A stretch of 19,283 nt of DNA from a virus, in the UHGV virus genome UHGV-1601451. One strand, given 5' to 3'. Under the pieces are notes generated by a model. It did not search any database. It was not told the origin of the DNA and worked only from the letters and a program-made list of their open reading frames with translations. Positions 1-18,725 of the stretch are shown piece after piece. Numbering within the stretch: position 1 is the first letter of the stretch; every line of letters begins with the position of its first letter. The translations under genes and the position numbers were made by a program.

Positions 1-209
1 TCAATCGATTCAGAGATCTCTAACGCATCATCGACTTCAATGCCCAGATAACGGAATGTGCTTTCCAGTTTCTTATGACCCAACAGAAGTTGAATCACCC
101 GAAGATTCTTGGTCAGCGGACAATAGGTGCAACGCCATATTGAACCCTTAAGACTAAAGTGGACCGATATAGTAAGCGTTACACTGGCCCATTGCCAGCA
201 TCGAAATGC
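1..209 (-). pseudogene. tyrosine recombinase (phage-integrase family) C-terminal fragment; N-terminal part missing; 3' end runs off window start
   Basis: Minus-strand frame is open from 209 down to position 1, bounded upstream by an in-frame TAG at 210-212, with no long minus-strand ORF in 212-447. Translation ...PLTKNLRVIQLLLGHKKLESTFRYLGIEVDDALEISESI has the LLGH-x(6)-T-x-RY box-II pattern around the catalytic Tyr of tyrosine recombinases. Only about 70 codons are present. Confidence 0.5.
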
Positions 210-486: not shown

Positions 487-984
487 ATGTTAAATTTAGA
501 CGAAATGTGCAGCGCATTAAGAAAACAATACTCTATAACGGCTGGTCAAGATGGTGAGAAATATGCTAGTAGATGGCTGGAAAAATCCAAGTGGAAATTT
601 GAACATGTTGAGCAAGGAATAAATACCTTATCTGCAAACTTGAAATCGTATGGGAGGAAACGCCCCGATTTTATTATTGACATTGACGAATCCTCTTATA
701 TTCTTTTAGATGCGAAGTATCACTCAACAGATGGGTGTACCTCCTTTACACTTACTGATTGTGAAATAGGAAAATATAGAGCACTTCAGCAATTCTTAAA
801 AAATGTGTATAGTGATTGTACTTTCGAAGTAGTCTTTATGGTGTTTCCGAAAGAAAAAAATGGTGACGAATTTACATTTGTGAGTCTAGATGAGTTTGAT
901 AAAGGAGAGTGTACGACTCTAGCATCAAAAGATGCAACGAAAATTAGTCTACTCTATCGAGATGACTTATGGTTTAAAAGTTGA
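487..984 (+). CDS. small PD-(D/E)xK nuclease-like protein (restriction-endonuclease / NERD-like core), AT-rich cargo gene
   Basis: ORF in track as 448..984. Start at 487 preferred because AGGAG (472-476) lies 10 nt upstream; the ATG at 478 is only 1 nt from the SD and 448 has no SD. Translation has an acidic helix (GEKYASRWLEK) followed by RPDFIIDID...SSYILLDAKYH, i.e. a D ... D-x-K arrangement with nuclease-like spacing. Codon composition is much more AT-rich than the flanking phage genes. Opposite strand to the late operon. Confidence 0.7.
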   Translation: MLNLDEMCSALRKQYSITAGQDGEKYASRWLEKSKWKFEHVEQGINTLSANLKSYGRKRPDFIIDIDESSYILLDAKYHSTDGCTSFTLTDCEIGKYRALQQFLKNVYSDCTFEVVFMVFPKEKNGDEFTFVSLDEFDKGECTTLASKDATKISLLYRDDLWFKS

Positions 985-1326
985 TTAATAAAAAACAATT
1001 GGCTTTCACCATTTTTAATTACTTTTCCCAGCATGCCGAAAATGTCTCATTTATTTGAATGATTGTATCTTTAATAGATATATCGCGACTATTCCTAAAC
1101 TTATTTCTAGTTGTTAACAAAACTGTGTGCTATGAATGTCTGCTGTTGGCACATAGCAGTTCTAGAGACAGTGGCGTAAAGTCATGGAGAATCGGTGGAA
1201 GGAGGTGCAAACCCTCTCATACAAAAATGCGTAAAATCAGTAACGGCTGGAAATCATTCAATACTCGCACTATCAAAAGTTCACCAGCCAACCGCGACAC
1301 CTCCTGCATACGACATGTCTGCGGTT

Positions 1327-1881
1327 TTATATAACCCTGGCTGGAAACCTCTTATACAAAGTTGACACACCAACATCATAGATAATAGCCACCTTCTGGC
1401 GAGGAACGCCTGATGCAATTAATCGCCCGGCCTGCGCCCATTGTTCTGGTGTAAGTTTGAGACGACGTCCACCAATTCGTCCCTGTGCGCGAGCAGCTTC
1501 CAGTCCAGCTTTTGTTCGTTCAACAATCAGTTCTCGTTCCATTTCAGCCAGGGCACCCATCACATGAAAGAAAAAACGCCCCATCGGTGTGCTGGTATCA
1601 ATAGCATCCGTCAGGCTGCGAAAATTAACGCCACGTTCGCGCAACTCCTCAACCAGAATGACCAGATGCCGCATACTACGCCCCAGCCGATCCAGCTTCC
1701 AGACAACCAGAGTGTCACCTGCCGATAATGTCCTGAGCAGTTTTTTCAGTCCCGGCCTTTCGGACTTTGTGCCGCTTATCTTGTCTTCAAAAATCAGCTC
1801 GCATCCTGCACAGTTCAGCGCATTACGTTGTAGATCTGTGTTCTGGTCATTTGTTGACACACGTACATAGCCAATAAGCAT
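1327..1881 (-). CDS. pin: DNA invertase, serine recombinase of the Gin/Pin/Hin/Cin family
   Basis: Translation from the ATG at 1881, MLIGYVRVSTNDQNTDLQRNAL...VVWKLDRLGRSM...MGRFFFHVMGALAEMERELIVERT...GRIGGR, matches the resolvase/invertase catalytic domain (active-site Ser in RVSTNDQ) plus a C-terminal HTH. AGGGAG SD 7 nt upstream of 1881. The 12-codon extension in the track ORF (to 1917) is not supported. Confidence 0.93.
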   Translation of the reverse strand: MLIGYVRVSTNDQNTDLQRNALNCAGCELIFEDKISGTKSERPGLKKLLRTLSAGDTLVVWKLDRLGRSMRHLVILVEELRERGVNFRSLTDAIDTSTPMGRFFFHVMGALAEMERELIVERTKAGLEAARAQGRIGGRRLKLTPEQWAQAGRLIASGVPRQKVAIIYDVGVSTLYKRFPARVI

Positions 1882-1935
1882 GGTAGATCTCCCTGACAAA
1901 AGCAGGAATGATGCCATTTGCTCGTTATTTCTGCA

Positions 1936-1961
1936 TTTTCATAAACGTTGGTTTGGGAGAA
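1936..1961. repeat. gix/hix-like 26-bp recombination crossover site (right site), between invertase start and invertible segment
   Basis: TTTTCATAAACG-TT-GGTTTGGGAGAA: two 12-bp half-sites around a 2-bp core. The inner half-site is a perfect inverted repeat of the inner half-site at 3797-3808. The core TT is the reverse complement of the AA core at 3809-3810. Confidence 0.8.
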
Positions 1962-2300
1962 GCGGCCAAATTGCCTGCGATTAGTGGCTCTTTATCATCA
2001 TCTGGCTGGATAAAAATCCCTGTTATAGAGGGGAAGTCTTTTATTATCCAATGGGGAAGAATCGGACCTTCTGATAGTAAAACTGGTGTTGCAACAGGAA
2101 GTTATCCTATTGCTTTTCCAAATTCTGCATTTATGGCATTTATTGCTGAAAAAACCGCAGTATCCACAGGCCCAATAGGTATTAATTCCTGGGGAGTATC
2201 CGAACTAACAAAAACAGAATTAAAGGCCATTTGTGCTGCAAGGACTATATCAACTTCAGCCGCAACTGAAACAGGTGATTTTCTGGTACTGGGATATTGA
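1950..2300 (+). CDS. alternative tail-fibre C-terminal variable part (Sv'-like), no own start; expressed only after inversion as a fusion to the constant N-terminal part
   Basis: The frame is open through the right crossover site. GGT TTG GGA GAA (GLGE) at 1950-1961 is in frame with the downstream ORF ...AAKLPAISGSL...IIQWGRIG...LVLGY, stop at 2298-2300. The same GLGE codons occur in the minus-strand fibre gene at the left site, so inversion gives an in-frame fusion. Confidence 0.75.
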   Translation, partial: GLGEAAKLPAISGSLSSSGWIKIPVIEGKSFIIQWGRIGPSDSKTGVATGSYPIAFPNSAFMAFIAEKTAVSTGPIGINSWGVSELTKTELKAICAARTISTSAATETGDFLVLGY

Positions 2301-2320
2301 GCTTCCATAAGGATTATAAA

Positions 2321-2770
2321 ATGTCGAGCATAATATACTACAGCTCTATAAATAATGCATTTTACCCTGAGCATTTGAAACAAGAATATATTAAATCTAA
2401 TTCTTTTCCAGCAGATGCAAAACCCGTTAAATATTCTGTTTTCGAAGAATTTGCACTTAAACCAGCACCAGAAGGAAAATACAGGTGCGTTGGTGAAGAT
2501 GGAATGCCATCATGGGCAGATATTCCACCACCAACACATGAGGAACAGATTGCCGCAGCCGAATTGAAAAAGCAGCAATTGATTAACCAGGTCAACGAAT
2601 ACATGAACAGTAAACAATGGCCCGGTAAAGCGGCTATTGGTCGTCTGAAAGGTGAGGAACTGGCGCAATATAATCTGTGGCTGGATTACCTGGACGCACT
2701 GGAAATGGTCGATACTTCCAGTGCTCCAGATATTGAATGGCCTACGCCTCCGGCAGTTCAGGCCAGATGA
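2321..2770 (+). CDS. tail fibre assembly protein (Tfa/U'-like), cognate to the alternative fibre tip
   Basis: MSSIIYYSSINNAFYPEH...DTSSAPDIEWPTPPA has a typical Tfa N-terminus and the conserved C-terminal D-T-S-x-A-P-D-x-x-W-P motif. AAGGA SD 7 nt upstream of the ATG at 2321. The track ORF begins at a TTG at 2297. Confidence 0.8.
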   Translation: MSSIIYYSSINNAFYPEHLKQEYIKSNSFPADAKPVKYSVFEEFALKPAPEGKYRCVGEDGMPSWADIPPPTHEEQIAAAELKKQQLINQVNEYMNSKQWPGKAAIGRLKGEELAQYNLWLDYLDALEMVDTSSAPDIEWPTPPAVQAR

Positions 2771-3344
2771 CATCTGGCGCGGTGCTGGTATCAGTTGCCG
2801 TCACCGCGTCAATGTAATCCAGCACAGCGTTAAGGCGGGTTGTTTCTGTCTGCGTCAGTTTACGTCCGGCCTGCAATTTCAGTTGAATCAGACTGATGGA
2901 AGCCATAGCAGCATCAATCAGATACTGGCGCTGTGCTTCTGCCGCTTCTACTGCGGCGCTATGCTGTGCCTCAGTATCCGTCACCCATTTCTCACCATCC
3001 CATTTATCGTATGGCGTTAATGGGGCGATAGTGGTTGTATTATCAGGGTAATCACCCGGAGCTGTGATTTCTTTTGATTCTCCTGTTTCGGTGCTAAAGA
3101 CGATTTCACCGCGATGGTCTGGCACATATTCCCATGAGTTAAAATCTGCAGAACGGCAGATTGCATAACCAGCTTTGTATGCGCCTGGAGCATCTAAACA
3201 GGAACATGCCGGAATGCCGACACCAACGGCAAGATATTCAGTTGATATGGAAATATATTCCCGTGTTTCACCATCATAATTATAGACAGTAATATTCCCC
3301 GCCTTCGTGGCAATAAACTCGCTATTTAATACAGCGCTATCCAT
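2742..3344 (-). CDS. tail fibre assembly protein (Tfa/U-like), cognate to the currently expressed fibre tip
   Basis: 200 aa ending ...LDYIDAVTATDTSTAPDVIWPELPEA, the conserved Tfa C-terminal motif. Start ATG overlaps the fibre stop (TAATG). Its 3' end overlaps the convergent Tfa' gene by 29 nt. Confidence 0.85.
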   Translation of the reverse strand: MDSAVLNSEFIATKAGNITVYNYDGETREYISISTEYLAVGVGIPACSCLDAPGAYKAGYAICRSADFNSWEYVPDHRGEIVFSTETGESKEITAPGDYPDNTTTIAPLTPYDKWDGEKWVTDTEAQHSAAVEAAEAQRQYLIDAAMASISLIQLKLQAGRKLTQTETTRLNAVLDYIDAVTATDTSTAPDVIWPELPEA

Positions 3345-4099
3345 TATGCAGCCCTCACAATGTAGTTAAATGCGATGTTGCGTGGACGGACACCGAAATA
3401 AGAAGTAACACCATTCATTGTCAAATTTCCAGAGCCAAAAGCGGTAAAACCAGAACCAGCATTAACTGCCGAATCCGCGTTTCTGACAAAGTTTTTGGGA
3501 GGTGAACCGGAGACACCAGCCGAAATATCATCAGCATTACCGCCATTGCCGTGGTGGTTAGTTATCTTTGTTTCCGCCTGCGCCGTCAACAAACCTCGTC
3601 CAGAGTCAACCCCGCGCCCGTCATCCCAGCCGCGAATAAACTCACCACGTAAATCAGGCAATTTATTTGTCGGATAAGCCTTTGCCAGTTCCGGGTATTC
3701 TTCAGCAGAAAAAGCCGCGCCGTTGCATTTCAGCCAGCCTGTTGGCGGAGTGGCGGAAGGCCATGGAACAGGGACACCAACGGGTAATGCAGAGCCTTCT
3801 CCCAAACCAAGGTTTTCGAGAGCCGTTTTCACCGTGCCATCCGATTTGATATCACCAAACGGATTCTTGCGGCTTAACAGCAGCGCACGAAGCGCGGTAA
3901 GCAGCTGGTCGTGCCGCGCCTTCTCCAGGCTGGCACCGGATGCCTCCACAACACTGCAAAGTTCCTCCTGCAACATGTCAAAGTAGTCATCATCCAGATC
4001 GGTGGCAGGTGTGCCGTTCTGGGGGTTACCACGGGTAAAACCGTTCTTACCCGCGCCGAACTTATCCTTCTGCGCGGTTTTCGTATCTATACGATGCAT
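3344..4099 (-). CDS. tail fibre protein: constant N-terminal part fused to variable tip carrying a phage tail-collar domain
   Basis: 251 aa. GGAG SD 6 nt upstream of the ATG at 4099. The tip downstream of the crossover site has PVGVPVPWP...[24 protein letters not shown]...[12 protein letters not shown], matching the tail-collar fibre domain signature. Crossover site lies inside the gene at 3797-3822. Confidence 0.9.
3797..3822. repeat. gix/hix-like 26-bp recombination crossover site (left site), inside the tail-fibre gene
   Basis: TTCTCCCAAACC-AA-GGTTTTCGAGAG. Near-palindromic 12-bp half-sites resembling the TTnnnnnAAACC half-site of Gin/Hin systems. 15 bp are identical to the inverted right site. 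Confidence 0.8.
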
Positions 4100-4102
4100 G
4101 GA

Positions 4103-4687
4103 TTACTCCGGATATTTAAAAATTACGTAGGTATGCGACGGGCAGAGTTTGTTAAGCACACACTCGACAACGGTGTCGCCCCAGATACGCAGTGCGGAAT
4201 CACAGGGATCGCCACATGTCATCCAGGTGGTGTTGGTGGCGGCTGGCATGTTGACCTGCCAGTAATACCGCCATTCCGGCGCATTCACCGCGTCAGTACA
4301 GGCCGATGAGCAGGTGAACGTGCTTTTGTCGTATCGCGTGATGGTGGCGTCTGGTCTGCCCAGGGCAGCAAGCTGTGCAAGGTAAAAATCCTCATTGATG
4401 CCGCCCGCCAGGTTAACCTTCGCATCCAGTCGTTGCTGACGCTGGCGAAGGGTCTGTGTCCCTGCGGGAATACATTCATCCGGCAGGCCGCACAGACGCT
4501 CCCAGCGATTTATCAGTTCGGTGGTGGTGCGCGGATCCAGCTCCCGCATCAGGGCATCCGCACGCTGATGAACGCGGGTTAATGACGGTGCCGCACCGGC
4601 AATCGCCGGATCGCTGGCTGACCACGCCGGACCGGGGGGCAACAGTGCCGACAACAGATGGATGTAATCATCGTTTGTCACGTCCAT
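4103..4687 (-). CDS. tail/baseplate protein, YmfQ / Mu gp48-like (DUF2313 family)
   Basis: 194 aa, immediately upstream of the tail fibre and downstream of the baseplate J-like gene, as in Mu and e14. Recognised by position and overall resemblance. Confidence 0.7.
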
Positions 4688-5736
4688 GAAATCGTCCCCA
4701 GTACCGCCAGTTCATTTTTTGCAATGGAGATATTGTCCGCCGGTGCAAGCAACTGATGGCTGTATTCCCCGTTCGCACCGGAAATCGCCTCACTGATACG
4801 CGACACCTTCAGTTCACCCTGCGGATAACCATCACGCAGCAGGAACGAACGCAACTCGGCGGTGATGGCAGCCCGTATTTCCGGTGTGTCCGGCGTCACG
4901 CGGATATGAAAATCCACTTTATGCGCCACCGGCCTGAATACATACAAATCAGAGCCTGCCACCGGGGCCAGTGGCTCAATGTGTTGTCTTGCCGCCGTTT
5001 CCGTTGATTCTTCCGGAATGGGATTAATCAGGTCACTGCTGGCAATCATCACACCGACAGTCCCCGTTCCCATCCAGTGGCGGTATGTCCATGCACGGGT
5101 AATGCCTGGCACTTCTTTAGCCCAGACAACATAGTCCCCGTCAGCCCCGCCCTGAGGCGTCCAGTAATACCGCTCAATGACGCGGGCGCGCCACGTTTCC
5201 AGCTCTTCAGTATCAAATCCACCTGTCAGAGTGTCTGCCACGCCGGAAGACGGCAGACCATTCACCGGCGTGACCAGGATTAATGACGTACCGTCGTCAG
5301 CATTACCGACCGCTCCTGCACTTGAGCAGGCGATCGGCACGCGCAGGACACCACCGGAGCTGGTTGCATCGGCAGTTGCCGTGTACTGAACCAGGTCATC
5401 GCGCTGAATAACACTCCCGGCGGTCACCTTCAGGCCATCGCTGACACCTTCCCAGCGCATATACCCGCTGGCAGCCGTGGCCCCCTTGCGCGGACACCGT
5501 TTCATCGCAGCATGTCGCGCCAGCCAGGACTCATCGCACAGGTCAGGCAGCATGTTCATTGCCAGATAATCGATGTAACCGTAAACCGTATGCAGCGCCG
5601 CCGCATACACCTTTGCCCGCACGTCTTCATCCATGCGCCGGAGCGTATCGCTGACGTCCAGCCTGGCGAATAAATCGTTACGGAGCATACTGATATTTTC
5701 TGCCAGCGTCGGGCGCTGAAATTCACTGTCCGCCAT
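4678..5736 (-). CDS. baseplate J-like protein (Mu gp47-like)
   Basis: 352 aa in the conserved position between the W-like and gp48-like genes. Small overlap with both neighbours, typical of a tightly packed tail operon. Confidence 0.8.
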
Positions 5737-6151
5737 GCGTTATCGCACTCCACAGATCATCAAAAGAAATCATTACCGGTCCGTCACGACGCCAGAGAGT
5801 GATACTGTTACCCAGTTCATTAATCCCGGTGCGGCGGATATCCAGATCAATACGGGACACCACACCGTCATCAATCATCCATTGCAGGCATTCGCGGATA
5901 TACCCCCTTACCGTCTGCACCAGCTGATTGGTCAGTTTGCCGCGCTGAAGCAGCCACAGCCGGGAGCCGTAACGGTCATTCTGTACCGCAGGCCAGGTAT
6001 CCCCCCACCATCCCATCGGGACGTCGGCATTGTCATCAGGCTCCGCCCGCCGCCAGGTGAACAGGGAAATCACCACGGCGCGGGTCAGCGGATCCAGCGG
6101 TGCGCTGGCGCAGGTGCGTTTACCGTTCACCGTCAGCCACAGTTCCATCAT
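5723..6151 (-). CDS. baseplate protein, Mu gp46 / GP46-family (W-like)
   Basis: 142 aa, positioned between the spike and J-like genes. Overlapping starts and stops with neighbours. Confidence 0.7.
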   Translation of the reverse strand: MMELWLTVNGKRTCASAPLDPLTRAVVISLFTWRRAEPDDNADVPMGWWGDTWPAVQNDRYGSRLWLLQRGKLTNQLVQTVRGYIRECLQWMIDDGVVSRIDLDIRRTGINELGNSITLWRRDGPVMISFDDLWSAITHGGQ

Positions 6152-6696
6152 GCCTCCATCGCTTTATCCGGTTTGTCGGTGTTACTGCCCTGACCGTTCT
6201 CTCTGTGACGATGGCCGTTATAGGCAAGCCGCATCGCTGACATGGTGGTGCCGCCGGAGTCGCACAGGTCTTTCACCTGTCCGGTCACTTCCAGGTCCAT
6301 TTCAAAACGTGCTCTGGGCGCATTGCGAAACGTGATCGTTTTACCTGCACCGTCCACCACGATCCCCTCCCGGGTCAGCGTCACAGACTGCCCCTGATCG
6401 TCATAGACAGCCACCTCCCCCGTCTGCAGCCCTTTCAGGCGGTAGCGCCGGTCCGACACCGTAACAACCACCGCATGAGAACGGTCGCCATCCGGAAACA
6501 ACACCACCGCTTCCGCACCGCTGTTTGCCCTTGCGGTAAAACCGTAGGGTTCAAGATGTTCAACCCCGGCTTTGGGTTCACCGGCAATCAGGGACACATC
6601 CACGGTCTGACATTTCGTGGCGGCACTGATGCTTTTCACCACTGCCCGCCCAATCAGGCCGAGAAGTTGTCGCTGCATGGCTTCAATCGTCCTCAT
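6148..6696 (-). CDS. baseplate assembly protein V-like (central spike), Mu gp45-like
   Basis: 182 aa, N-terminal OB-fold-like region followed by a Gly-rich C-terminus. Start overlaps the hub gene stop. Confidence 0.75.
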   Translation of the reverse strand: MRTIEAMQRQLLGLIGRAVVKSISAATKCQTVDVSLIAGEPKAGVEHLEPYGFTARANSGAEAVVLFPDGDRSHAVVVTVSDRRYRLKGLQTGEVAVYDDQGQSVTLTREGIVVDGAGKTITFRNAPRARFEMDLEVTGQVKDLCDSGGTTMSAMRLAYNGHRHRENGQGSNTDKPDKAMEA

Positions 6697-7775
6697 CAGA
6701 ACGGGTCCTCCTGTACTCTGGCTTTTTTCTTTTTCCGCGCGCCGGGGTCTTCAGGTTCAGGCAGATAAGCATCAGGCGGGCCGACACGGATTTCCGTCAG
6801 GGTGCCGTTCTGGTCCTGAGTAAACGTGACTTCCGAAACAAGCAGTTCGGTATTGTCAAAACCACAGACCGGATCAAAGACAATCACCCGCTGGTTGGGT
6901 TGCCACAGCGTACCGTTACCCTGTCGCCAGCCCTGCACCACATAGGTGGTTTCATCCGTCCGCGCCGCCCGTTGCCGGGCTTCAAAGTCAGCACGCGCAA
7001 TACAGCCTGCCCCCGTAGCCTGCCCTGTCTGCCTGATATACATCGGACGGTAACGGGCAATAAATGCGTCCTCTGTGCGGGCCCGCAGCGCGGTGGTGGT
7101 GGCCTCACCGAAATCATCGTCGTTTCCGGCACGCTGCCCCGCCACCTGGTAAACAGAAAACCGCTCCCGGATACTCTTCTCCGTATCGCAGGAAAGGATG
7201 TTTTCCCCAAGTACCAGCGCGGTATGTGCCCGCGTTGAGCCAATACCACCAATCACCAGCCTGCCGTGCGGGTCGTCGTAAGCCAGCGCCTGCTGCTGAC
7301 CGAGTATTTTGTTGATCACCTCGATCACCGTTTCACCGTGATCAGGCTGGACATCAGGAATAACACCCGACGGCGCACCGCTGTTCACCACCTCAATGCC
7401 GAAAGGCGCAGCAAGCGCCTGCGCAATCTGTACCAGCGATCGTCCGTTAAACTGTGTCGGTTCGGCTGCACAGTCAATCAGGTCAGCGGTCAGACTACGT
7501 CCGGCAATACCGGTGCTGACCGAACGGGCATCGTAACGAACGGGCGTCGCCTCCACCCAGCCGGTGATCACCAGCTCATCACCAATCAGCACCTCCACTT
7601 TTGAACCGTTTTTAATGCGCGACTGAAGCGTGGTAATACCCTCATCTCCCGGCCACTGGCGGGTGATCTCCACACTGAAATCCCGCGCCAGTCGTTCAAC
7701 ACCGGCACCGATGCGCACCGATGTCCAGCCATTCCACTCCCGGCCATTTACCCGTAGCGTGACGTTATCGTTCAT
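6696..7775 (-). CDS. baseplate hub protein, phage late control D-like (Mu gp44/P-like)
   Basis: 359 aa starting MNDNVTLRVNGREWNGWTSVRIG..., typical of the GPD family. ATGA overlap with the upstream DNA circulation gene. Confidence 0.85.
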   Translation of the reverse strand: MNDNVTLRVNGREWNGWTSVRIGAGVERLARDFSVEITRQWPGDEGITTLQSRIKNGSKVEVLIGDELVITGWVEATPVRYDARSVSTGIAGRSLTADLIDCAAEPTQFNGRSLVQIAQALAAPFGIEVVNSGAPSGVIPDVQPDHGETVIEVINKILGQQQALAYDDPHGRLVIGGIGSTRAHTALVLGENILSCDTEKSIRERFSVYQVAGQRAGNDDDFGEATTTALRARTEDAFIARYRPMYIRQTGQATGAGCIARADFEARQRAARTDETTYVVQGWRQGNGTLWQPNQRVIVFDPVCGFDNTELLVSEVTFTQDQNGTLTEIRVGPPDAYLPEPEDPGARKKKKARVQEDPF

Positions 7776-9100
7776 TGCACTGGCACCTTCAGAGGGATCA
7801 CCGGCACAAAGCCGGGATGCGTAATGGCATTACGCCGGATAATGTCCGCGTCACGCGCCGCGTTATCAAACCAGGTCGCCGCCAGCACCAGCGCGGGTAA
7901 AACCTCATCCGGCGTGCGCTGAATGATCCGTGCAGACTGTTCAAGGCGCGTGTTGATATCCGCATTCAGATCTGCTTTCACCCGGCGCAGCGCCAGAAAC
8001 AGCGCATCACTGGTTGTTCGGGACAACTCCTTATCAATTGCCGTATTCAGTGTGTCGCGAATGTCAGTCAGTTCTTCCCACGTCGGCAGGTCAACCGTGC
8101 TTTTCACCGCCGGTGCATTGTTCAGTGCCGGATGCGTGACGGAGGGCCAGCCAGTGCTCTGCGCGGGTGTTGTTGCCTGCCCCACTGCGGCATTCTGCAT
8201 CACCGCGGAAGTTGTTGGCGCAGGCAATCGGGTGACGGCATACGCCGCTTCGCTGATTGCGGTCGTACGAAGGGTGCTGGCAACCACGTTACGCTGCTGC
8301 GTCGCCGTGGCGGTGGTTTTACTGTCCGTTTTCCAGACGCCGCGCGGTTGCAGATCGCTGCCGAGGCTGACACCGGAAAGCGTTTTGATCATGGTGACCA
8401 GGTCGCTGGCGTTACCATAAAGGCGTTTCCCGGTACGCCACATTTTCTGCACCTGCTCAACGAAATTTTTGCCTGACGATGGCGGCGGCAGAAGTACCGA
8501 GATATCCCCCTGCAACAGCCTGGCGGCATCCGATACGGCAGAATCCACCACTTTCATCGCATCAGAAACATACCCAAGCATTGTGCTGGCATTACCGACG
8601 ACGTCGTTCTGCACAAAATCTGCCACGCCATCGATACTGAAACCACTGAAGCTGTCACTGATGCAGTCATCCAGTGCAGAACAGGATGACATCAGCGTCT
8701 GCGCCGTCGCCGCACCTGAAGTGGGGTAAGAGAGTTCTCCCGCTTCGACAAACTTCAGGTCAAAGCGGACAATACGCCCTTCACTCTTCGATGTGCTGAC
8801 CCGAACTTCCCCGTCAACACAGACTTTCAGCTCACCGTAAGTCGGATGGACAAGTGTGCCGGGACCGGGTTTATTCAGCGCGTCAATCAGGCGATCGCGC
8901 TGGTCAAAGCAGTCATCTCCCACCACATAAGCTGTGATGGACGGGCGGAAAGTGATTTTCCCCAGGTCTTCGGTATAGGGTTTGTCGCGGTTCGGGTATT
9001 CGTGCGTTTCCACACGACGACCGGTTCCCGCACTTTCTTCTTCAACCTTAAACGGCACACCGCGAAATGACGCGTCCTGAAGTCTGTCTTTCCACGTCAT
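7772..9100 (-). CDS. DNA circulation protein (Mu N-like)
   Basis: Contains MTWKDRLQDASFRGVPF... near the N-terminus. Start placed at the ATG at 9100 (GGAG SD 5 nt upstream); the track ORF begins at 9142 with no SD, and its first 14 codons overlap a terminator-like hairpin. Confidence 0.8.
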   Translation of the reverse strand: MTWKDRLQDASFRGVPFKVEEESAGTGRRVETHEYPNRDKPYTEDLGKITFRPSITAYVVGDDCFDQRDRLIDALNKPGPGTLVHPTYGELKVCVDGEVRVSTSKSEGRIVRFDLKFVEAGELSYPTSGAATAQTLMSSCSALDDCISDSFSGFSIDGVADFVQNDVVGNASTMLGYVSDAMKVVDSAVSDAARLLQGDISVLLPPPSSGKNFVEQVQKMWRTGKRLYGNASDLVTMIKTLSGVSLGSDLQPRGVWKTDSKTTATATQQRNVVASTLRTTAISEAAYAVTRLPAPTTSAVMQNAAVGQATTPAQSTGWPSVTHPALNNAPAVKSTVDLPTWEELTDIRDTLNTAIDKELSRTTSDALFLALRRVKADLNADINTRLEQSARIIQRTPDEVLPALVLAATWFDNAARDADIIRRNAITHPGFVPVIPLKVPVQ

Positions 9101-9115
9101 ATAAACTCCGTACAT

Positions 9116-9137
9116 AAAAAATCCCACCGGAGTGGGA
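9116..9137 (-). terminator. short hairpin followed by T6 (intrinsic-terminator-like) between tape measure stop and DNA circulation start
   Basis: Minus strand reads TCCCAC-TCCG-GTGGGA followed by TTTTTT. Stem is only 6 bp, so at most a weak or partial terminator. Confidence 0.3.
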
Positions 9138-9160
9138 CTCATTAACAGATTAATTTTTCA

Positions 9161-10996
9161 TTACCTGCCAAAGCGCGTATAGCCAACATCATGGCTGACA
9201 TCAAAACCGCTGGATCGCGTTTCCATAACCCGCATACCCGGAGGCGAATTCACAAAAGAGACCTTGATCTCACCATCAACTTTTGGCGCAGAAGCTTTGT
9301 TAATCATGAAGGGATTCGGGCCTGTGGCATCGGAGGCGTTGTTTGACTGAGCCGGATCTACCGCCTGATAAGGTGTGTATCCCCGTGCCGGTATTCCCGT
9401 CCCATAAGCATCATAAGCACCCGCGCCCCACTGCGCAGAGTTAATGACATCGACCGTGTCACCGGAACTGTCGGTAAACCACTCAATAATTGGCTTCAGC
9501 TTGTCCCACATATCCTGAAACCACTTAACAACCGGTCCCCAGTTATTGATTACCATCCCCAGCGGCGACCAGGCAAAAACCTTCTTCAGAAGTTCCCAGC
9601 CAGCCTCAAAATAAGGACCAATGGTTTCCCAGAGCTTCTTGAAATAAGGTCCGACAACATCCCAGTTAGTGATAATTAATCCCGCAGCCAGGGCTATCGC
9701 CGTCGCAATCATTCCAATCGGCGTCATCGACATGATCCTGCTGACAATACTGATGGCACCGCCAACGCCCATCAATCCCAGTTTCAGAATCGCAAAACCG
9801 GCAGCAAGCCCGACGACGCCGCGAATAACCCGGGGATTTTCATCCGCAAACTTCGTGAATTTTTCCCCTAACTCCCCCAGCCATTGCGTGATATTTTTGG
9901 CGTCACCAGAAAATGCGCCGCCAATAGCCGCAAGGCCGTTAGTTGCGGTCCCCGTCATTGCCTCCCACAGGTTGGACAGCGTACCAAGCTGGGCCTGAAC
10001 ACGTTTATTCAGGCTGGCCTGTTTATTCATCTTCTGCTGGATCTGATCGTAACCATCTTTTCCTTTATCGATCAGAGCATTGACCACCTGAAGGGTTTCA
10101 GCATCATCACCAAATATTGCCTTAAGTACACCGGTTCGCTTAACGTCGGTCAGTTTTCGCAGCTTTGCCAGTTGCCTGAACATGTTATCAAGACCGCCAA
10201 AACTCCCTTTGCCGTCAGTAAAATCGAGCTGCACTCCGAGTTTCTGGCGGGCCATGACTTTATTGACGTCCCTGATTTTCTTAACGCTTAATCCGGACTG
10301 GATAACTTTTCGCAGGGCATTACCTGCCGACTCCCCGTTCATCCCCATCTGATCCATCATGACGCTGATAGGGGCAAGGCTCTGTGCAGCCTGAAGACCG
10401 TCCTTATTCACCATCTTCAGAACAGAACTGGTTTTAGTGAAGAAGGACAACATGTTGGTATCGTCAACGCCCAGATAAAACGCCTTCTGGATAGTGTCGA
10501 ACAGCCCCATCATGTCTTCTGACGCCGTTCCGGTAGCATCCTGCATCTTTGCAGCAAACTCAGCAGCCGCTTCTGGTGTTTTTTTCAGTTGTACCGCAAG
10601 ATAAGCTGTCGCTTTACCCACACCACCCAGAATGTTTTCTGCCGGGATCCCCTGACGCACCAGCATCTGCATCATGTTCTGGAAATCAGCCGTTGTACCG
10701 GGTAGCTGGTTACCCAGGCCAATAGCCAGTTTATTGATGTCCTGAAAGCGCTTTCCAACCTCGCCGTTCGCATCCATCATGGCGACTTTCAGCCCGGTGG
10801 CGGCGTTTTCCTGATCGGCATAAGATTTCAGGGAAAGCGTCAGACCCGCTGCCAGTCCGCCACCAAGCGCCAGCCCACCCTGTGACGCTTCTTCCGCCTG
10901 GCGTTTAAATCCCCGGATTTTCTTTTGCATTTTCGACAGCGCCGGAGAAAGCCTGTCGACACCGGTGATCAACGCCTTAAGCTCAAATTCAGCCAT
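9161..10996 (-). CDS. tail tape measure protein
   Basis: 611 aa, helical and Ala/Gly/Leu-rich with a Trp-rich C-terminal region. Located directly after the frameshifted chaperone pair and before the baseplate genes. Confidence 0.85.
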   Translation of the reverse strand: MAEFELKALITGVDRLSPALSKMQKKIRGFKRQAEEASQGGLALGGGLAAGLTLSLKSYADQENAATGLKVAMMDANGEVGKRFQDINKLAIGLGNQLPGTTADFQNMMQMLVRQGIPAENILGGVGKATAYLAVQLKKTPEAAAEFAAKMQDATGTASEDMMGLFDTIQKAFYLGVDDTNMLSFFTKTSSVLKMVNKDGLQAAQSLAPISVMMDQMGMNGESAGNALRKVIQSGLSVKKIRDVNKVMARQKLGVQLDFTDGKGSFGGLDNMFRQLAKLRKLTDVKRTGVLKAIFGDDAETLQVVNALIDKGKDGYDQIQQKMNKQASLNKRVQAQLGTLSNLWEAMTGTATNGLAAIGGAFSGDAKNITQWLGELGEKFTKFADENPRVIRGVVGLAAGFAILKLGLMGVGGAISIVSRIMSMTPIGMIATAIALAAGLIITNWDVVGPYFKKLWETIGPYFEAGWELLKKVFAWSPLGMVINNWGPVVKWFQDMWDKLKPIIEWFTDSSGDTVDVINSAQWGAGAYDAYGTGIPARGYTPYQAVDPAQSNNASDATGPNPFMINKASAPKVDGEIKVSFVNSPPGMRVMETRSSGFDVSHDVGYTRFGR

Positions 10997-11407
10997 GTGT
11001 GCGTTTCTCCTGCTCTATCCTGTTTGCCTGACTGACCAGCAAGGGAATTTCACTGATCGGCATATTCAGCAATTCGAAGGGATTAATGCGCCAGTAACTG
11101 GCGCAGTCAAAGAAGCGATCAGTGAGGTATTCAGCCGTCAGGCCTGGAGGAAAAAACCAGCCACAAGCCACGCCGCTGCATTCAGGTCTGCCGGAGACAT
11201 CTGGTCGACAGAGCTTTGCGGCACTTTCGCCAGCCGCACAATGTATTTCGACACCACATGCGCCAGAAGTCTGACGGACTCATCCTGATTCATCTGGTAA
11301 GGATACCCCAGCTCGCGGACATCCTTCCCGGTGGGTTCATCAAACTCCAGTACGGAGAGTGTCTCGCCATGAGCGATAATCGGTTTCTTTAACTCAAGCT
11401 CTTTCAT
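10989..11407 (-). CDS. tail assembly chaperone, long form produced by -1 programmed ribosomal frameshift
   Basis: Slippery heptamer T-TTT-TTC on the minus strand (plus coords 11150-11156). The -1 frame continues as FFPPGLTAEYLTDRFFDCASYW...EKRTHG and stops at 10989, overlapping the tape measure start. Same architecture as the lambda G/GT and P2 E/E' chaperone pairs. Confidence 0.7.
11138..11407 (-). CDS. tail assembly chaperone, short (in-frame) form
   Basis: 89 aa ending ...AAWLVAGFFLQA, directly upstream of the tape measure. Contains the slippery heptamer near its 3' end. Confidence 0.8.
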   Translation of the reverse strand: MKELELKKPIIAHGETLSVLEFDEPTGKDVRELGYPYQMNQDESVRLLAHVVSKYIVRLAKVPQSSVDQMSPADLNAAAWLVAGFFLQA

Positions 11408-11763
11408 TACTGGTAATCCCCTTCTTCACCGTGGAACTCAAGATCAACCGTGCCTTCTTCGGCATTATGGTTCGCTTCGCCGTGCACCCAGGCTGACGAC
11501 AATACATAGACCTGACCGTTCGCCAGCTCAGCAGTGATGGTCATCTCATCAGACGAGGTGATTTTGCTCACAGGAAAATTCTTCGGCACCTTGAAGGTCC
11601 CTTTAACATAGGGCGCACGGTGAGTTTCCTTGCGGTCCACTGAACCGTCCAGGCCGATGATGTCATCATTGACCGTCCTGTTCATGGGCACCTCAATGCC
11701 GCCGGTCAGCGATAGCTGCTGACCGTCAATTTTGAAATAACAGGTTCCCCCGATACGGGCCAT
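11407..11763 (-). CDS. tail tube protein (Mu-type)
   Basis: 118 aa, immediately downstream of the sheath gene with overlapping stop and start. Confidence 0.8.
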   Translation of the reverse strand: MARIGGTCYFKIDGQQLSLTGGIEVPMNRTVNDDIIGLDGSVDRKETHRAPYVKGTFKVPKNFPVSKITSSDEMTITAELANGQVYVLSSAWVHGEANHNAEEGTVDLEFHGEEGDYQ

Positions 11764-13259
11764 TATGCAGACTCCTCTGAATACTGAAGACGGAACTGGT
11801 TAACCACGGCAAAGACACGCAACTGGTTAACATAGTCAGGCGGGAACAGCGTGTTCAGGCGGTTCGGATCGCTGGCATCACGCTCCACAACCAGGTACTG
11901 CTTGAACAGTTCGTAGTTTTCCACGATCCCCGCACGCTCGAGCTGACGGTAGGTTGCCAGCAGTTCCCCTTTGATCACTGCCGGGGTGACAATCGCCTGA
12001 CCGGGACCAAAGCGGGTACCGTCACTGGCAAGCTTGTGACGCCCGTACTTACTGGTAATGACGGATTTCAGTTTGCGCAGTACATACGCGCTGGTATGCA
12101 ACGTCTCGCTGTCGAGGTAGCTGTTATCCGCAACCCCGTAAGCGTTTTTCCTGTACGTGGTGACATCACGCTGAATGCGCAGTACCCCGCTTTCGACATA
12201 CGCCGTTGCCACGCCATGAGACAGCAGGGTCTGTTGTTCGGTCATCGTGAACCGTTTCCCCTTCGGCGCAGGCAGCATACCCACCAGCTCACCGGTCTGC
12301 GTGGGACGTGCCGGATCGTTGCGGATAAACACCGCTGCGCGGGCGGTACGGCTTGCCGCCAGCTCATCGGCAGGCGTCTGGGTGTCTTTTTCGTACCCCG
12401 CCAGGGTAATGTGCTGCTGGTTAAACTGGTCACCTGCGGTCACCAGTTCTGACAGCGTGCCGATCTTTGCCGTATACACATGGCCATACAGCTGACGCGC
12501 ATAGCTCCAGCGACCGCTGGTATCGTTCATCTCGGTCACCAGCGTGTTAAGGGAGGCCGTGTCGTTGAACGGCAGACCGATATAATCAAACGGCTCATCC
12601 GCCATTGCAGCCACCGCGCCGGTGAGAACCGGAGCGCCCGTTCCGGCGGTCCCCGCCGCCACGGCAATCTGTACGCCCGCAGGCAGCACTTCTCCCCCAC
12701 CGAAGCCGTAGTAATTGAGGCTGACAGGAATTTCATTCCCGCAAAGCCCCTTATGACGCGCGGTCAGTGTGACCACGCCAGCCGAAGATGAGGCCGTAAA
12801 CGGCAGGGCCGGAACGGCATTGATGGCATCCTGGATACTGCTGGCAATCGTCGCGACGTTATCGCCGTTGGTCACCGGTGCCTGCACGCGGGTACGTCCC
12901 ACATAAACATTCACCGTGCCGGTTTCGGTTGCCGCGCCGGTCACCGTCAGCGTAACTGTTGCCGCCGCGCCCGTGGATTCAGGAACGGCAATCACATACA
13001 GTTCACCAAACGGGTCGGTCTGGCGATAAGCCTCGACCATACGCGCCAGCTGACTTCCCGCACCACAAATCTGGCGTGCATAGTCTGCCGATGGCATCAG
13101 CACCAGACTGTTGGCAACAATCTCTGCACCGTTATTGGCATGACCAATCAGCAGCGATGCCCCGCTGTCCTGTGCAGTATTCGCCGCCTGGTTATCCATT
13201 TCCGCATAAAACAGCGGAACCAGCGTATTCGACGGAATGGTGTTAAAGCTTATCGTCAT
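11763..13259 (-). CDS. contractile tail sheath protein (Mu-type)
   Basis: 498 aa starting MTISFNTIPSNTLVPLFYAEMDN..., characteristic of Mu-family sheath proteins. Followed by the tube gene. Confidence 0.9.
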   Translation of the reverse strand: MTISFNTIPSNTLVPLFYAEMDNQAANTAQDSGASLLIGHANNGAEIVANSLVLMPSADYARQICGAGSQLARMVEAYRQTDPFGELYVIAVPESTGAAATVTLTVTGAATETGTVNVYVGRTRVQAPVTNGDNVATIASSIQDAINAVPALPFTASSSAGVVTLTARHKGLCGNEIPVSLNYYGFGGGEVLPAGVQIAVAAGTAGTGAPVLTGAVAAMADEPFDYIGLPFNDTASLNTLVTEMNDTSGRWSYARQLYGHVYTAKIGTLSELVTAGDQFNQQHITLAGYEKDTQTPADELAASRTARAAVFIRNDPARPTQTGELVGMLPAPKGKRFTMTEQQTLLSHGVATAYVESGVLRIQRDVTTYRKNAYGVADNSYLDSETLHTSAYVLRKLKSVITSKYGRHKLASDGTRFGPGQAIVTPAVIKGELLATYRQLERAGIVENYELFKQYLVVERDASDPNRLNTLFPPDYVNQLRVFAVVNQFRLQYSEESA

Positions 13260-13413
13260 CGGTATTCACCTTTTTATTCACGCGCCGGATATCACCCGCT
13301 GCTTCACGGCGCAGCCAGTAGTTGTTCTCATCAACATTTCGCCCTTCGGCGGGCAAAAGGTCGCCGCGGGCAGGGTCAGGAACTGACCGCCCTTTAACAG
13401 GTTTGACAAACAT
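13243..13413 (-). CDS. small hypothetical protein (56 aa), not in the supplied ORF track
   Basis: ATG at 13413 preceded by GAGGA (5-nt spacer) overlapping the upstream gene stop. Translation MFVKPVKGRSVPDPARGDLLPAEGRNVDENNYWLRREAAGDIRRVNKKVNTDDDKL, stop at 13243-13245. It fills the otherwise non-coding 160-bp gap and overlaps the sheath start by 17 nt. Confidence 0.5.
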   Translation of the reverse strand: MFVKPVKGRSVPDPARGDLLPAEGRNVDENNYWLRREAAGDIRRVNKKVNTDDDKL

Positions 13414-13421
13414 GAGGATCC

Positions 13422-13982
13422 TCAGGAAGGAAGGGTTATTTCGGTGTGATGTTCGATATCGCCGTCAGGCCCGTTACCGGGCTCGAGATAATCAACATCA
13501 ATCGCCAGCGTTTGCAGTTCATCCAGACTGTTCAGATCATCCTGCTGGCGGGTATCGTCTTCAGTCAGCTCGCTGATGACCGAAAAATCGAACTGATAAA
13601 TCAGCTCATGACGATTCAGATCCAGCAGCGTGCCGCCGTCATAGGTAATCGGGTTACCGCACGCCTCCGGGTTCCAGCCCAGCAGAGCCTTAAAGAGCAT
13701 CTGCCGGACATCGTCAACCACATCATACGAGGCAAACTGACCGCGCTCATCACGCCCGTTACTCAGTATGACAACCACGGAGAAACCCTCTTTCAGCTCC
13801 TGCCAGTAGTCGGTCTGGCTTTTGTTTTCTCCCGGAGAATCATCACCCGGTACAACATATGCCGCCGGGAGTTTCAGCTTTCCGACCTCCGGCAGATTTT
13901 TGAACTGGGCCGCGCCTGCAACCCGGTTTTCAAAATACGGACAGCGGGCACGCAGTGCAGCAATAACAGGCGTCAGTTTCAT
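13422..13982 (-). CDS. neck / tail-completion protein (Mu gp37-like family, tentative)
   Basis: 186 aa, acidic, between the head-tail connector genes and the sheath. 4-nt overlap with the upstream gene. Family assignment by position only. Confidence 0.5.
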   Translation of the reverse strand: MKLTPVIAALRARCPYFENRVAGAAQFKNLPEVGKLKLPAAYVVPGDDSPGENKSQTDYWQELKEGFSVVVILSNGRDERGQFASYDVVDDVRQMLFKALLGWNPEACGNPITYDGGTLLDLNRHELIYQFDFSVISELTEDDTRQQDDLNSLDELQTLAIDVDYLEPGNGPDGDIEHHTEITLPS

Positions 13983-14485
13983 CTGTGTCGTCGCTCCGGC
14001 TTCAGTGATTTACGCAATTCCCGCGCCAGAAAATAGCGTGTCCAGCTGCGGTTCTTTTCAAGCGTTTCCACCATAAAGTTATTACGTGGAGCCAGTCGCC
14101 AGCCGCTGCCACCGGATGCACCACGATGATGGCTGCGACGACGCTTTGCTCCTCCCCGGACACCAAAAAACAGAAACGCCGGATAGAAGTCACCAGAGAT
14201 CATCCGGTTCCCCTTCCCGTTGCGCTGGTTAGGGGCAATGCGTGTCATAAAACCGGCTCGCTTTTTACTGGCTCCCGGCACCATGTAACCAATCGAACGA
14301 GCCAGGCGTCCGGTCTGATAACCGGGGTTTTCACCCGGTGCCGACCGCGCACGGCGCATCACCAGCCGACGGGCATCACGCATATGACGCTGCCCAATCG
14401 TGACAAACGCCCGCCGGACACGGGCGCGGTTAAAGCGCATCTCGGCGGGCTGCTGAACATCAACGTGAAAAAAGGAAGTCGCCAT
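13979..14485 (-). CDS. virion morphogenesis / tail-completion protein (tentative)
   Basis: 168 aa, strongly basic (Arg-rich). Packed with overlaps between its neighbours in the connector cluster. Confidence 0.5.
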   Translation of the reverse strand: MATSFFHVDVQQPAEMRFNRARVRRAFVTIGQRHMRDARRLVMRRARSAPGENPGYQTGRLARSIGYMVPGASKKRAGFMTRIAPNQRNGKGNRMISGDFYPAFLFFGVRGGAKRRRSHHRGASGGSGWRLAPRNNFMVETLEKNRSWTRYFLARELRKSLKPERRHR

Positions 14486-14870
14486 TGTTGCCTCCGTGAC
14501 TCTGCGTAAATTCGCCCAGCTCCGTACATTCCAGCAGCAGAAAGCGCCGCGCCCCGTTCAGATCGCGCTGACGTTTTACCCGGTACACACTATCACCGCA
14601 GACCACCTCATAATCAGCGGTGATCCCCCGGCGGTAACGAATGGTGATGTAATGGGTGATGGCGTCCCCGGTCTGCGCGGTTTCCTGCCTGGTGGTGGCA
14701 CTGGTCTGGATAACCTTCGCCCATGTCCGGAACGTAACCGGGTATTGAGGCTCCACGCCAAAGTTATCCGCGGGCATATCCACCCGCAGGCGGATCAGGA
14801 CGCGTTTATTCAGTTCACCGGGGTCCGGCAGAATGTAGGTTGCGCTGGTCTGCGCCTGACGAATTTTCAT
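14460..14870 (-). CDS. head-tail adaptor / head closure protein (tentative)
   Basis: 136 aa, in the connector cluster downstream of the gp6-like gene. ATGA-type overlap with the upstream gene. Confidence 0.5.
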   Translation of the reverse strand: MKIRQAQTSATYILPDPGELNKRVLIRLRVDMPADNFGVEPQYPVTFRTWAKVIQTSATTRQETAQTGDAITHYITIRYRRGITADYEVVCGDSVYRVKRQRDLNGARRFLLLECTELGEFTQSHGGNNGDFLFSR

Positions 14871-15190
14871 TGCGGAAAGTACCTGTACGGGCCGACAAGC
14901 CAGCCAAAACTCTGCGGCATGTCGAGTTTCTCCACTTCCGTAACCGACGAGCGGTTTTCGTAAAAATGGCTGATAAGCATCAGCATCCCCAGACGAATAT
15001 CATCCGGCAGGTGCAGCCCGTCCGGATCGCTGTCCGGAATGGTTTCATCCGGTGCATAGAGCTTCCGGTTCAGATACGTTTCCGTCCGCTTTTGTGCCGC
15101 ACATGCCAGCAGTTGCAGATGGCGGTCATCAGTATCGAAATCCTCATCCAGCCGGAGTTGGGCTTTAATCTCTTCCATTGTCAGAAGCAT
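14867..15190 (-). CDS. head-tail connector protein, gp6-like
   Basis: 107 aa, MLLTMEEIKAQLRLDEDFDTDD..., typical of the small gp6-like connector family that follows capsid genes. Confidence 0.6.
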   Translation of the reverse strand: MLLTMEEIKAQLRLDEDFDTDDRHLQLLACAAQKRTETYLNRKLYAPDETIPDSDPDGLHLPDDIRLGMLMLISHFYENRSSVTEVEKLDMPQSFGWLVGPYRYFPQ

Positions 15191-15192
15191 AC

Positions 15193-15393
15193 TCAGCCCT
15201 CTTTACTGGTCGTGGCTTTTTTCTCTTTTGCCGCTTTACTGCTTTTTGCACTGATTCCGCGCTCTGCTAACCCGGCCTGAAGTGCAATCTCCTGCACCCG
15301 GGCAGGAAGCGCCCCGTCGTCATACTCACCGGCCCGAATGACCTCAACACGCATACCGTCCGGTGACCATTTCAGATCTTGTTTCAGGATCAT
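15193..15393 (-). CDS. small hypothetical protein (66 aa), Lys/Ala-rich C-terminus
   Basis: Tightly packed between the capsid gene and the connector gene. Function unknown. Confidence 0.45.
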   Translation of the reverse strand: MILKQDLKWSPDGMRVEVIRAGEYDDGALPARVQEIALQAGLAERGISAKSSKAAKEKKATTSKEG

Positions 15394-15415
15394 GATTCTT
15401 CACCCGTCAGAACAG

Positions 15416-15435
15416 GGGGCGCGGTTCCGCGCCCC
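15416..15435 (-). terminator. GC-rich stem-loop just downstream of the major capsid gene (no U-tract)
   Basis: GGGGCGC ... GCGCCCC perfect inverted repeat, 8-11 nt after the capsid stop. Not followed by a T-run on the transcribed strand, so more likely an attenuator or stability element than a full terminator. Confidence 0.35.
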
Positions 15436-15442
15436 TGAGTGA

Positions 15443-16648
15443 TTACGCCGCTGCAATCTTCAGCAGTTTGATGGCCTGCGAATCGACCAGCATCCCGCCG
15501 GTGCGCTTGGTGGTATAAAAACCGACAAACGGTTTATTGGTGTACGGGTCACGCAGAATGCGGGTGCCGATACGGTCAACGATGGTGTAACCCCGTTTGA
15601 AGTTACCAAATGCAATGGCTTTCGCATCAGCGGCGATATCCGGCATCTGTTCGTTTTCAGCGATACCGTAACCCGCCAGAGAGGACGGCTGCCCCAGTTC
15701 CAGCCCCGGACGCCACAGATAGTTACCCTCGGTGTCTTTCAGCAGACGGATGGCAAACAGGCTGTTGTTGTTCATCATGAACTTCGCGCCAGTGCGGTGT
15801 GCCTTACGCAGCGTGTAAATCAGTTTGATAATGGCGTCTGCGGTCACCGCGGTCGCTTCGCCGGATACAATATGCTGAAGTTTGCCGAACGCCCGGACCT
15901 TGTCGGTTTCATCAGTGGATTCATACGCCAGGAACCCTTTCGGCTTCTTGGTGCCATCGCCTGAGGTAAAGGCAATTTCTTCCTGTTCGGCAAATTCGGT
16001 TGCCAGCTCGCTGTTGATCCAGGCCTCCACGTTGAAGAAGGCATCGTCCAGCATTTTCTGGGTAGCCTGCGGGTTGCCGTAGATTTCCCCCATGAGAGGT
16101 TCAATCAGCTCCAGTCTGGAGGTGGCAGTCTGGGCTCGCGTATCCGTTTCCCCCACCCATCCGGAAGCCGTACCGCCCAGATTCACCAGTTTTTTGTAGT
16201 CGGAACCGCCAACGGTGATCACCGTGGCTTCCTGACGCATCACCACTTCATCTTTCAGCAGGTTAAGAATGTTGCGATCCAGTTCTTCCGGCACGGCGTA
16301 GCCACCGTCTTCATCGGTACCCACCTGCAATGCCTTACGCTCCAGATCGCGCAGACCGTCTTCACGGCCTTTACGCAGGAAGCCCACAAACGCCTCTTTA
16401 TGCTCGGTGGCCAGTTTATTTTGCGCTCCACCTGCCGGACGTTTCAGCTCAAGCAGCTCTTTTTCAAGGTCGCTTTTGAGATTTTCCAGCTCGCTGAGTT
16501 TCCCGTTCAGGGTTTCCACCTGCCCGGCAAGCTTGCCTTTTTCCTGCTCAATCGCATCCACGCGCTTGTCGTTCTTTGCTTTGAAGTCGTCAAACTTCTG
16601 CTGCAGCTCCTGCGCGACCTGTTCCACATCTTTAATATCAACCGCCAT
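15443..16648 (-). CDS. major capsid protein, HK97 family, with N-terminal coiled-coil scaffolding (delta) domain
   Basis: 401 aa. The N-terminal ~100 aa is a charged heptad-rich coiled coil (DIKDVEQVAQELQQKFDDFKAKNDKRVDAIEQEKGKL...). The C-terminal part resembles the HK97 fold core. AGGAG SD 7 nt upstream. Directly downstream of the prohead protease. Confidence 0.9.
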   Translation of the reverse strand: MAVDIKDVEQVAQELQQKFDDFKAKNDKRVDAIEQEKGKLAGQVETLNGKLSELENLKSDLEKELLELKRPAGGAQNKLATEHKEAFVGFLRKGREDGLRDLERKALQVGTDEDGGYAVPEELDRNILNLLKDEVVMRQEATVITVGGSDYKKLVNLGGTASGWVGETDTRAQTATSRLELIEPLMGEIYGNPQATQKMLDDAFFNVEAWINSELATEFAEQEEIAFTSGDGTKKPKGFLAYESTDETDKVRAFGKLQHIVSGEATAVTADAIIKLIYTLRKAHRTGAKFMMNNNSLFAIRLLKDTEGNYLWRPGLELGQPSSLAGYGIAENEQMPDIAADAKAIAFGNFKRGYTIVDRIGTRILRDPYTNKPFVGFYTTKRTGGMLVDSQAIKLLKIAAA

Positions 16649-16662
16649 CGTATTTCTCCTGA

Positions 16663-18532: not shown

Positions 18533-18714
18533 TATTTACCTCCGCCGACAGACGACTGTGTACGGTCGAGATATCGCGCCACCAGCCACGACCAGAACAG
18601 GCACAACGCCCCGGCAACAACAAACCCCGCCGGGGGATAAATCAGCCAGGCACCATACGCCAGCAAAAGCGCCCCCAGCACGCCCACCAGAGGCGCGAGA
18701 ATCAGCATGATCAT
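18532..18714 (-). CDS. small integral membrane protein (60 aa, two predicted TM helices)
   Basis: [26 protein letters not shown] / [23 protein letters not shown]: two hydrophobic helices. GAGG SD 5 nt upstream of the ATG. Exactly fills the gap between the terminase stop (18726) and the portal start. Confidence 0.6.
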
Positions 18715-18725
18715 AATTACCTCAG

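Follow-up and report, generated by a model that had tools for sequence, protein, structure and literature searches.

The stretch of viral DNA considered here (UHGV virus genome UHGV-1601451; 19,283 nucleotides, hereafter the window) carries between positions 1950 and 3808 a segment that we regard, with high confidence, as a DNA inversion switch with two sites, belonging to the Gin/Cin/Hin/Pin (Din) family and, within it, to the Pin/P-segment system of the Escherichia coli element e14. The segment occurs naturally in both orientations, with the breakpoints inside the two crossover sites, and flipping it replaces one tail fibre tip by another in the same reading frame. The E. coli prophage that carries it is an intact, SfV-like myovirus, and the switch stands at the end of its tail gene module. 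In every feature that can be tested on sequence it appears as one more, already known member of the e14 Pin/P-segment family, the mechanism, sites and genes of the e14 P segment having been described in the 1980s.

The initial annotation had placed two 26-bp crossover sites in inverted orientation, one of them inside the fibre gene, and a re-reading of the sequence gives the same positions (Table 1); the other site lies near the invertase gene (pin). Both sites have a 12-2-12 architecture with imperfect dyads and matching cores. Their inner half-sites are reverse-complementary at 12 of 12 positions, and the core dinucleotides, which read TT and AA on the plus strand, are both TT in an alignment of the sites as inverted repeats, as religation requires. 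Over their whole length the two sites agree at 21 of 26 positions, and they share the centre AAAC(C/G)-NN-GGTTT, which is common to gix and cix.

Taken as a mere repeat, this pair of sites says rather little. The top inverted repeat within 1200-4300 pairs 1943-1962 with 3796-3815 (20 nt, 95%), and an exact 15-bp inverted repeat occurs a single time in the window, but at least one 15-bp inverted repeat pair within 5 kb was also obtained in 13 of 200 dinucleotide shuffles, so that the real one is only mildly unusual. The length of the repeat is thus weak evidence, and the case for a switch rests on context. The core of the invertase-proximal site is 67 bp away from the start codon of pin, on its upstream side. 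A third crossover site, of the kind that permits multiple inversions in the Min system of p15B, was searched for across the window, and none was found.

The reading frames are part of this context. The variable genes form two convergent cassettes, each composed of a tip and a chaperone, and the fusion to the constant part of the fibre is in frame in either orientation. The fibre gene, on the minus strand, reads GLGE and then GSALP; on the plus strand GLGE recurs in frame at 1950-1961, as had been proposed, and is followed by AAKLP, translation continuing to the stop at 2300. The crossover core falls in codon 97, which gives a constant part of 97 residues, with shared sequence up to residue 101 (the end of GLGE); the length of about 96 residues given in the initial annotation needs only this small correction. 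When 1950-3808 is flipped in silico, the constant part is fused in frame to tip B in a single open reading frame (ORF) of 213 aa, identical to the coding sequence (CDS) annotated at the same place in E. coli UPEC_U013, and the in-frame fusion predicted earlier therefore survives the re-check. Tip A falls in the Pfam family Collar and tip B in Gp53-like_C; each is followed by a Caudo_TAP gene, in agreement with the earlier statement that each has an adjacent Tfa chaperone. The chaperone of tip B shares 59% identity with K-12 TfaP over its C-terminal 98 aa, and NCBIfam and PADLOC returned no specific family for the fibre proteins. Cassette B, which is not joined to the fibre gene in the present orientation, has a leader ORF, MMPFARYFCIFINV, that runs in frame through the pin-proximal site into GLGE and the gp53-like tip. 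The chaperone genes converge, and their 3' ends share 29 nt (2742-2770), just as they do in K-12 e14.

The invertase gene is intact. It had first been taken as an ORF of 196 aa, but the real product is 184 aa long and begins at the ATG at 1881, with GGAG just before it; the longer ORF, from 1917, is an upstream extension. In the protein the Resolvase domain covers residues 3-135 and HTH_7 residues 138-181 (Pfam), and the catalytic-type residues Y5, R7 and S9 (in GYVRVST), R42, D64, R65 and R68 are all kept. Pin is 96% identical to K-12 PinE over 181 aa, its best solved structural relative is Gin (3UJ3, 1.7e-92), and the identical gene in UPEC_U013 is named pinE by PGAP.

Evidence that the segment really inverts in nature comes from searches of complete E. 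coli genomes, made with the window as given and with a flipped version. The unflipped query had a best match of 97.7%, and the flipped one matched UPEC_U013 (NZ_CP058596.1) at 100% over all 3101 nt. Comparison of the whole window with this genome by BLAST gave three segments, direct for 1-1962 (100%), inverted for 1943-3815 and direct again for 3796-19252 (7 mismatches, 1 indel), which overlap solely in 1943-1962 and 3796-3815; the breakpoints are thus inside the 20-bp repeats. Three soil isolates, with chromosomes of 4,839,683 bp each, carry the segment in differing orientations. Between two of these MEI isolates, MEI2B-1023 and MEI1-1023, compared over a 9.1-kb locus, the flanks are 100% identical and the sole difference is the inverted 1.9 kb, with breakpoints again within the repeats. 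Finally, the junction of constant part and collar tip (the state of the window) was found in 517 genomes and the junction of pin and collar tip (the other state) in 951. These counts, obtained among complete E. coli genomes (with a query of 301 nt for the constant/collar junction) at a threshold of at least 80% of the query covered, are approximate, as prophages devoid of an invertase may also carry the constant/collar junction. Both orientations are thus present in public genomes.

One could object that such differences in orientation were produced by RecA-dependent recombination between short inverted repeats, or by errors of assembly. An exact 15-bp inverted repeat does exist, and the window is itself a short-read contig ending in adapter. 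However, RecA exchanges efficiently only over homologies longer than 15 bp, the breakpoints fall at canonical 12-2-12 sites for an invertase whose intact gene adjoins them, and independent assemblies, deposited as complete genomes, show this flip as well. Moreover, inversion of the e14 segment by PinE has been observed by whole-genome sequencing and by PCR (PMC4272514). We consider this explanation scarcely credible.

The initial annotation had assigned the segment to the same type as the Mu G, P1 C and e14 P segments, with a serine invertase and a Fis-dependent enhancer. The type of switch is supported, and the enhancer is placed by homology. A stretch near the 5' end of pin (Table 1) is homologous to the one that the P1 record marks as enhancer, with identities of 55/72 to cin, 54/72 to gin and 70/72 to K-12 pinE. 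Fis-like sequences, for which the initial annotation suggested a search, are present at the start of the invertase coding region: two 15-mers, at 1845-1859 and 1797-1811 (pin nt 23-37 and 71-85), lie 48 bp apart, are bounded by G/C, fit the outer positions of the Fis core and are conserved in pin, gin and cin. Of the two AT-rich patches that have been named in the Hin enhancer (PMC3798978), one, TAATG, occurs between these cores. The centre of the site is about 97 bp from the nearest Fis-like core, to be compared with the 99 bp reported from hix1 to the enhancer in Hin. The protein gives independent support: the residues described as unique to Fis-dependent invertases (Hin K47/R48/K51 and Q151/R154/L155; PMC3798978) have their equivalents in Pin, namely K46/K47/R50 in the basic helix B and Q150/R153/L154 in helix 1 of the DNA-binding domain. 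By homology, 1792-1863 is a putative Fis-dependent enhancer.

Several observations nevertheless weigh against our interpretation and should be acknowledged. In the presumed enhancer the identity to cin and gin (75-76%) is no higher than in the remaining gene (71-73%), so that conservation cannot separate an enhancer from coding constraint. For pin, scanning against the consensus turned up no convincing sigma-70 promoter. Residue 141 of Pin is a leucine (L141), in place of the proline of K-12 PinE and Cin, at a position that is variable (P in Gin, R in Hin, by our own alignment). PinQ is also reported to flip the e14 P segment (PMC12529663), and other host invertases of the Pin family could in the same way flip the present segment in trans. 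Lastly, the evidence on orientation is drawn from deposited genomes and not from reads of the sample from which the window derives.

The last point, together with the P141L difference from PinE, might lead one to think of a fossil switch, in which sites and genes persist while inversion has ceased, the orientations in databases being old fixed states. There is indeed a copy of this sort: in E. coli 1008S13, the closest relative in the same orientation (97.7%), a fragment of the invertase gene remains (locus L001, 5992-6105) with an IS1 transposase nearby, and the segment, its invertase being truncated by the insertion sequence, is presumably locked. The window is different in that its invertase ORF is intact with all catalytic residues. 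In addition, UPEC_U013 is 100% identical over 3.1 kb apart from the flip, whereas the neighbouring 15.4 kb differ by 7 bases and 1 indel, which indicates that the flip is younger than the divergence of the adjacent module, and the sibling MEI isolates, with chromosomes of equal length, also differ by the flip. We therefore think that a fossil state is very improbable for the window.

If the switch works as its relatives do, Pin dimers would bind the two 26-bp sites, which would synapse at the Fis-bound enhancer inside the 5' end of pin; cutting at the 2-bp core, rotation and religation would then invert 1950-3808. In the present orientation the late tail operon would make the constant 97 aa with the collar-type tip (251 aa in all) and the TfaE-like chaperone, and after inversion the same 97 aa with the gp53-like tip (213 aa) and the other chaperone, such that a population of lysogens would release phage of two receptor specificities. 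We infer that this particular Pin is the catalyst, that the reaction depends on Fis and the enhancer, and that the two fibres differ in host range.

A rather different main role for the inversion in the lysogen, namely defence, should also be considered. Translation of the pin-proximal cassette would then begin at an ATG within it (1908 or 1911), and the free tip so made would mask a surface receptor. The leader ORF MMPFARYFCIFINVGLGE (1908-1961, plus strand), with its own ATG, is in frame through the pin-proximal site and is conserved in K-12, where MPFACYFFIFINVGLGE likewise crosses that site, and in RefSeq relatives the unjoined cassette is annotated as a stand-alone CDS. Furthermore, the K-12 equivalent, the chimera StfE2, is reported to block the receptor and thereby adsorption of phage T2 (PMC12529663). 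Against such a role, AGGA abuts the first ATG and is 3 nt from the second, a poor spacing for initiation, and the scan showed no promoter-like plus-strand site just upstream of the cassette, the nearest being at 1700-1729. The tips also differ from those of K-12 (39-56% identity), and with a virion module complete from terminase to fibre a host-range role is the simpler reading. We thus consider defence of the lysogen unlikely here, and a host-range switch remains our preferred explanation.

Table 1. Features of the inversion switch and of the adjoining tail genes, in window coordinates.
Feature	Positions	Strand	Details
Invertase gene pin, 184 aa	1327-1881	minus	Pfam Resolvase 8.5e-52 and HTH_7 9.4e-13
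Putative recombinational enhancer	1792-1863		pin nt 19-90; homologue of the enhancer given for P1 at cin nt 19-90
Cassette B, unjoined to the fibre gene in the present orientation	1908-2300	plus	Pfam Gp53-like_C 2e-09; CDS in relatives
Invertase-proximal crossover site, 26 bp	1936-1961		TTTTCATAAACG-TT-GGTTTGGGAGAA; core TT 1948-1949
Invertible segment between the two cores	1950-3808		1859 bp; in-silico flip matches NZ_CP058596.1 at 100% over 3101 nt
Tip-B-coding part (gp53-like) of cassette B	1950-2300	plus	GLGEAAKLPA... until the stop at 2300
Tail fibre assembly chaperone for tip B, 149 aa	2321-2770	plus	Pfam Caudo_TAP 1.5e-35
Chaperone for tip A, 200 aa, TfaE-like	2742-3344	minus	Pfam Caudo_TAP 1.5e-32; 90% identical to K-12 TfaE
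Tail fibre gene, present state, 251 aa	3344-4099	minus	Pfam Collar 1.2e-15
Variable collar-type tip A	3344-3808	minus	part of the 251-aa fibre gene
Fibre-gene crossover site, 26 bp	3797-3822		TTCTCCCAAACC-AA-GGTTTTCGAGAG; core AA 3809-3810
Fibre constant part, residues 1-97	3809-4099	minus	N-terminal 105 aa 95% identical to K-12 StfP
Mu gp48/YmfQ-like gene	4103-4687	minus	late tail operon
Mu gp47-like baseplate J gene	4678-5736	minus	late tail operon

The closeness to e14 deserves to be stated precisely, as the initial annotation considered the exact sites and the short constant part to be specific to this element, which cannot be maintained. Both crossover sites agree with the K-12 e14 sites at 26 of 26 positions, and the constant part is 95% identical to StfP. 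The gene order of e14, ymfQ-stfP-tfaP-tfaE-stfE-pinE, is the same as here (ymfQ, fibre constant part, two convergent tip/tfa cassettes, pin), with identities of 96% for PinE, 98% for YmfQ and 90% for TfaE, and the genes are annotated as pinE, tfaE and ymfQ in RefSeq relatives. It is the tips that have diverged, with 56% identity between the collar tip and StfE and 39% between the gp53-like tip and that of StfP. Other differences concern the surrounding element: K-12 e14 retains only remnants of head and tail genes, whereas the present prophage has a complete head and tail module, and the cargo beyond pin is mcrA in K-12 and a 165-aa protein here. In UPEC_U013, the near-identical relative, the neighbouring genes differ from those of the K-12 e14 site at icd. 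A recent study (PMC12529663, 2025) described the repeats TTGGTTTGGGAGAAGG / CCTTCTCCCAAACCAA at the ends of the 1797-bp e14 P segment; they match the window, the fibre-side repeat being identical at 3795-3810. The same study found the inverted state of the P segment in 33% of 562 genomes.

Comparison with the other classical systems places the switch in the same family. Mu, with its G segment and Gin, has 12-2-12 sites with an AAACC-NN-GGTTT centre, a site 67 bp upstream of the invertase start, a serine invertase and two convergent tip-plus-chaperone cassettes, all as here, and Mu-like baseplate genes (gp45-48) lie upstream of the present fibre gene. However, the constant part of Mu is about 169 aa (97 aa here) and Mu S reaches 504 aa (251 and 213 aa for the fibres here), the core dinucleotide is TC/GA instead of TT/AA, and the head genes of the present prophage are HK97-like and not Mu-like. 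The P1 C segment with Cin shares the recombinase family, the site architecture and, in cix, the TT/AA cores, and its enhancer is annotated within the first 90 nt of cin. In P1, nevertheless, the invertase gene ends at cixL, so that the site is 3' of cin and not 5' as for pin, the constant part of S has about 450 aa, and the segment measures 4.2 kb, against 1859 bp here. Hin of Salmonella belongs to the same recombinase subclass, its Fis/enhancer-contact residues being conserved here, but it flips a promoter to switch flagellin genes, and no coding segments are fused. In phage vB_EcoM-689R6 pin is seemingly on the strand opposite to the tail genes; we set this case aside, as the genome is partial and pinE and mcrA abut a truncated fibre gene.

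The serotype-converting phages SfII, SfI, SfIV and SfV of Shigella flexneri are about 97% identical to the window over 3796-19252, the structural module, and their homology with it ends exactly at the crossover site (3796). SfII has the same fibre constant part and an identical 26-bp site at the boundary between constant and variable parts (locus L010, 1762-1787), which further contradicts the specificity once claimed for these features. Unlike the window, it has a single gp53-like tip with one chaperone, and its fibre genes have no invertase beside them. Since SfII keeps an identical site with no invertase nearby and the homology stops at that point, the crossover site marks a module boundary across the Sf phage group. 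One may go further and imagine, for the same reasons, that the 26-bp site also serves for the exchange of cassettes between prophages. We hold this to be quite unlikely; if it were true, Pin acting in trans in a polylysogen could move tips between phages or invert large chromosomal stretches.

As a discovery this switch carries little weight, for the very sequence, in the other orientation, is already present in RefSeq with pinE annotated. It is more useful as a clean positive control: raw sequence had been enough to place the crossover sites and the frame correctly. It also calls for some caution in annotation: the orientation fixed by the assembler decides whether a fibre of 251 aa or of 213 aa is called, and the cassette left unjoined appears as a protein of its own.

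Beyond the switch, the late tail operon, on the minus strand, comprises the baseplate J gene, the YmfQ-like gene and the genes for the 251-aa fibre and the 200-aa chaperone, and the structural genes of the prophage are complete, from terminase to fibre. The virion module of the prophage is thus SfV-like, with a head of HK97 type and a contractile tail of Mu type, and ends in an e14-type invertible cassette.

Just beyond pin, an ORF of 165 aa (487-984, plus strand) occupies the slot held by mcrA in K-12 and by FRG, AAA-ATPase and HNH genes in the MEI strains. A sub-threshold match to the Pfam family RmuC was its only hit, PADLOC and NCBIfam giving nothing, and by eye its motif PDFIIDIDE...LDAKY resembles a PD-(D/E)XK nuclease. 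This slot may be a variable site for defence cargo.

At the right end, the last 31 or so bases (19253-19283) have no match in any relative and, with the preceding bases, read CTGTCTCTTATACACATCTCCGAGCCCACGAGAC, which we take to be the Illumina Nextera (Tn5 mosaic-end) adapter. The window is thus a contig from short reads, its adapter left untrimmed on the right. At the left end, positions 1-98 (minus strand) encode the C-terminal end of a tyrosine-recombinase-like ORF (...LLLGHKKLESTFRYLGIEVDDALEISESI*) that runs off the contig, and its counterpart in UPEC_U013 is annotated as a hypothetical protein of 34 aa.

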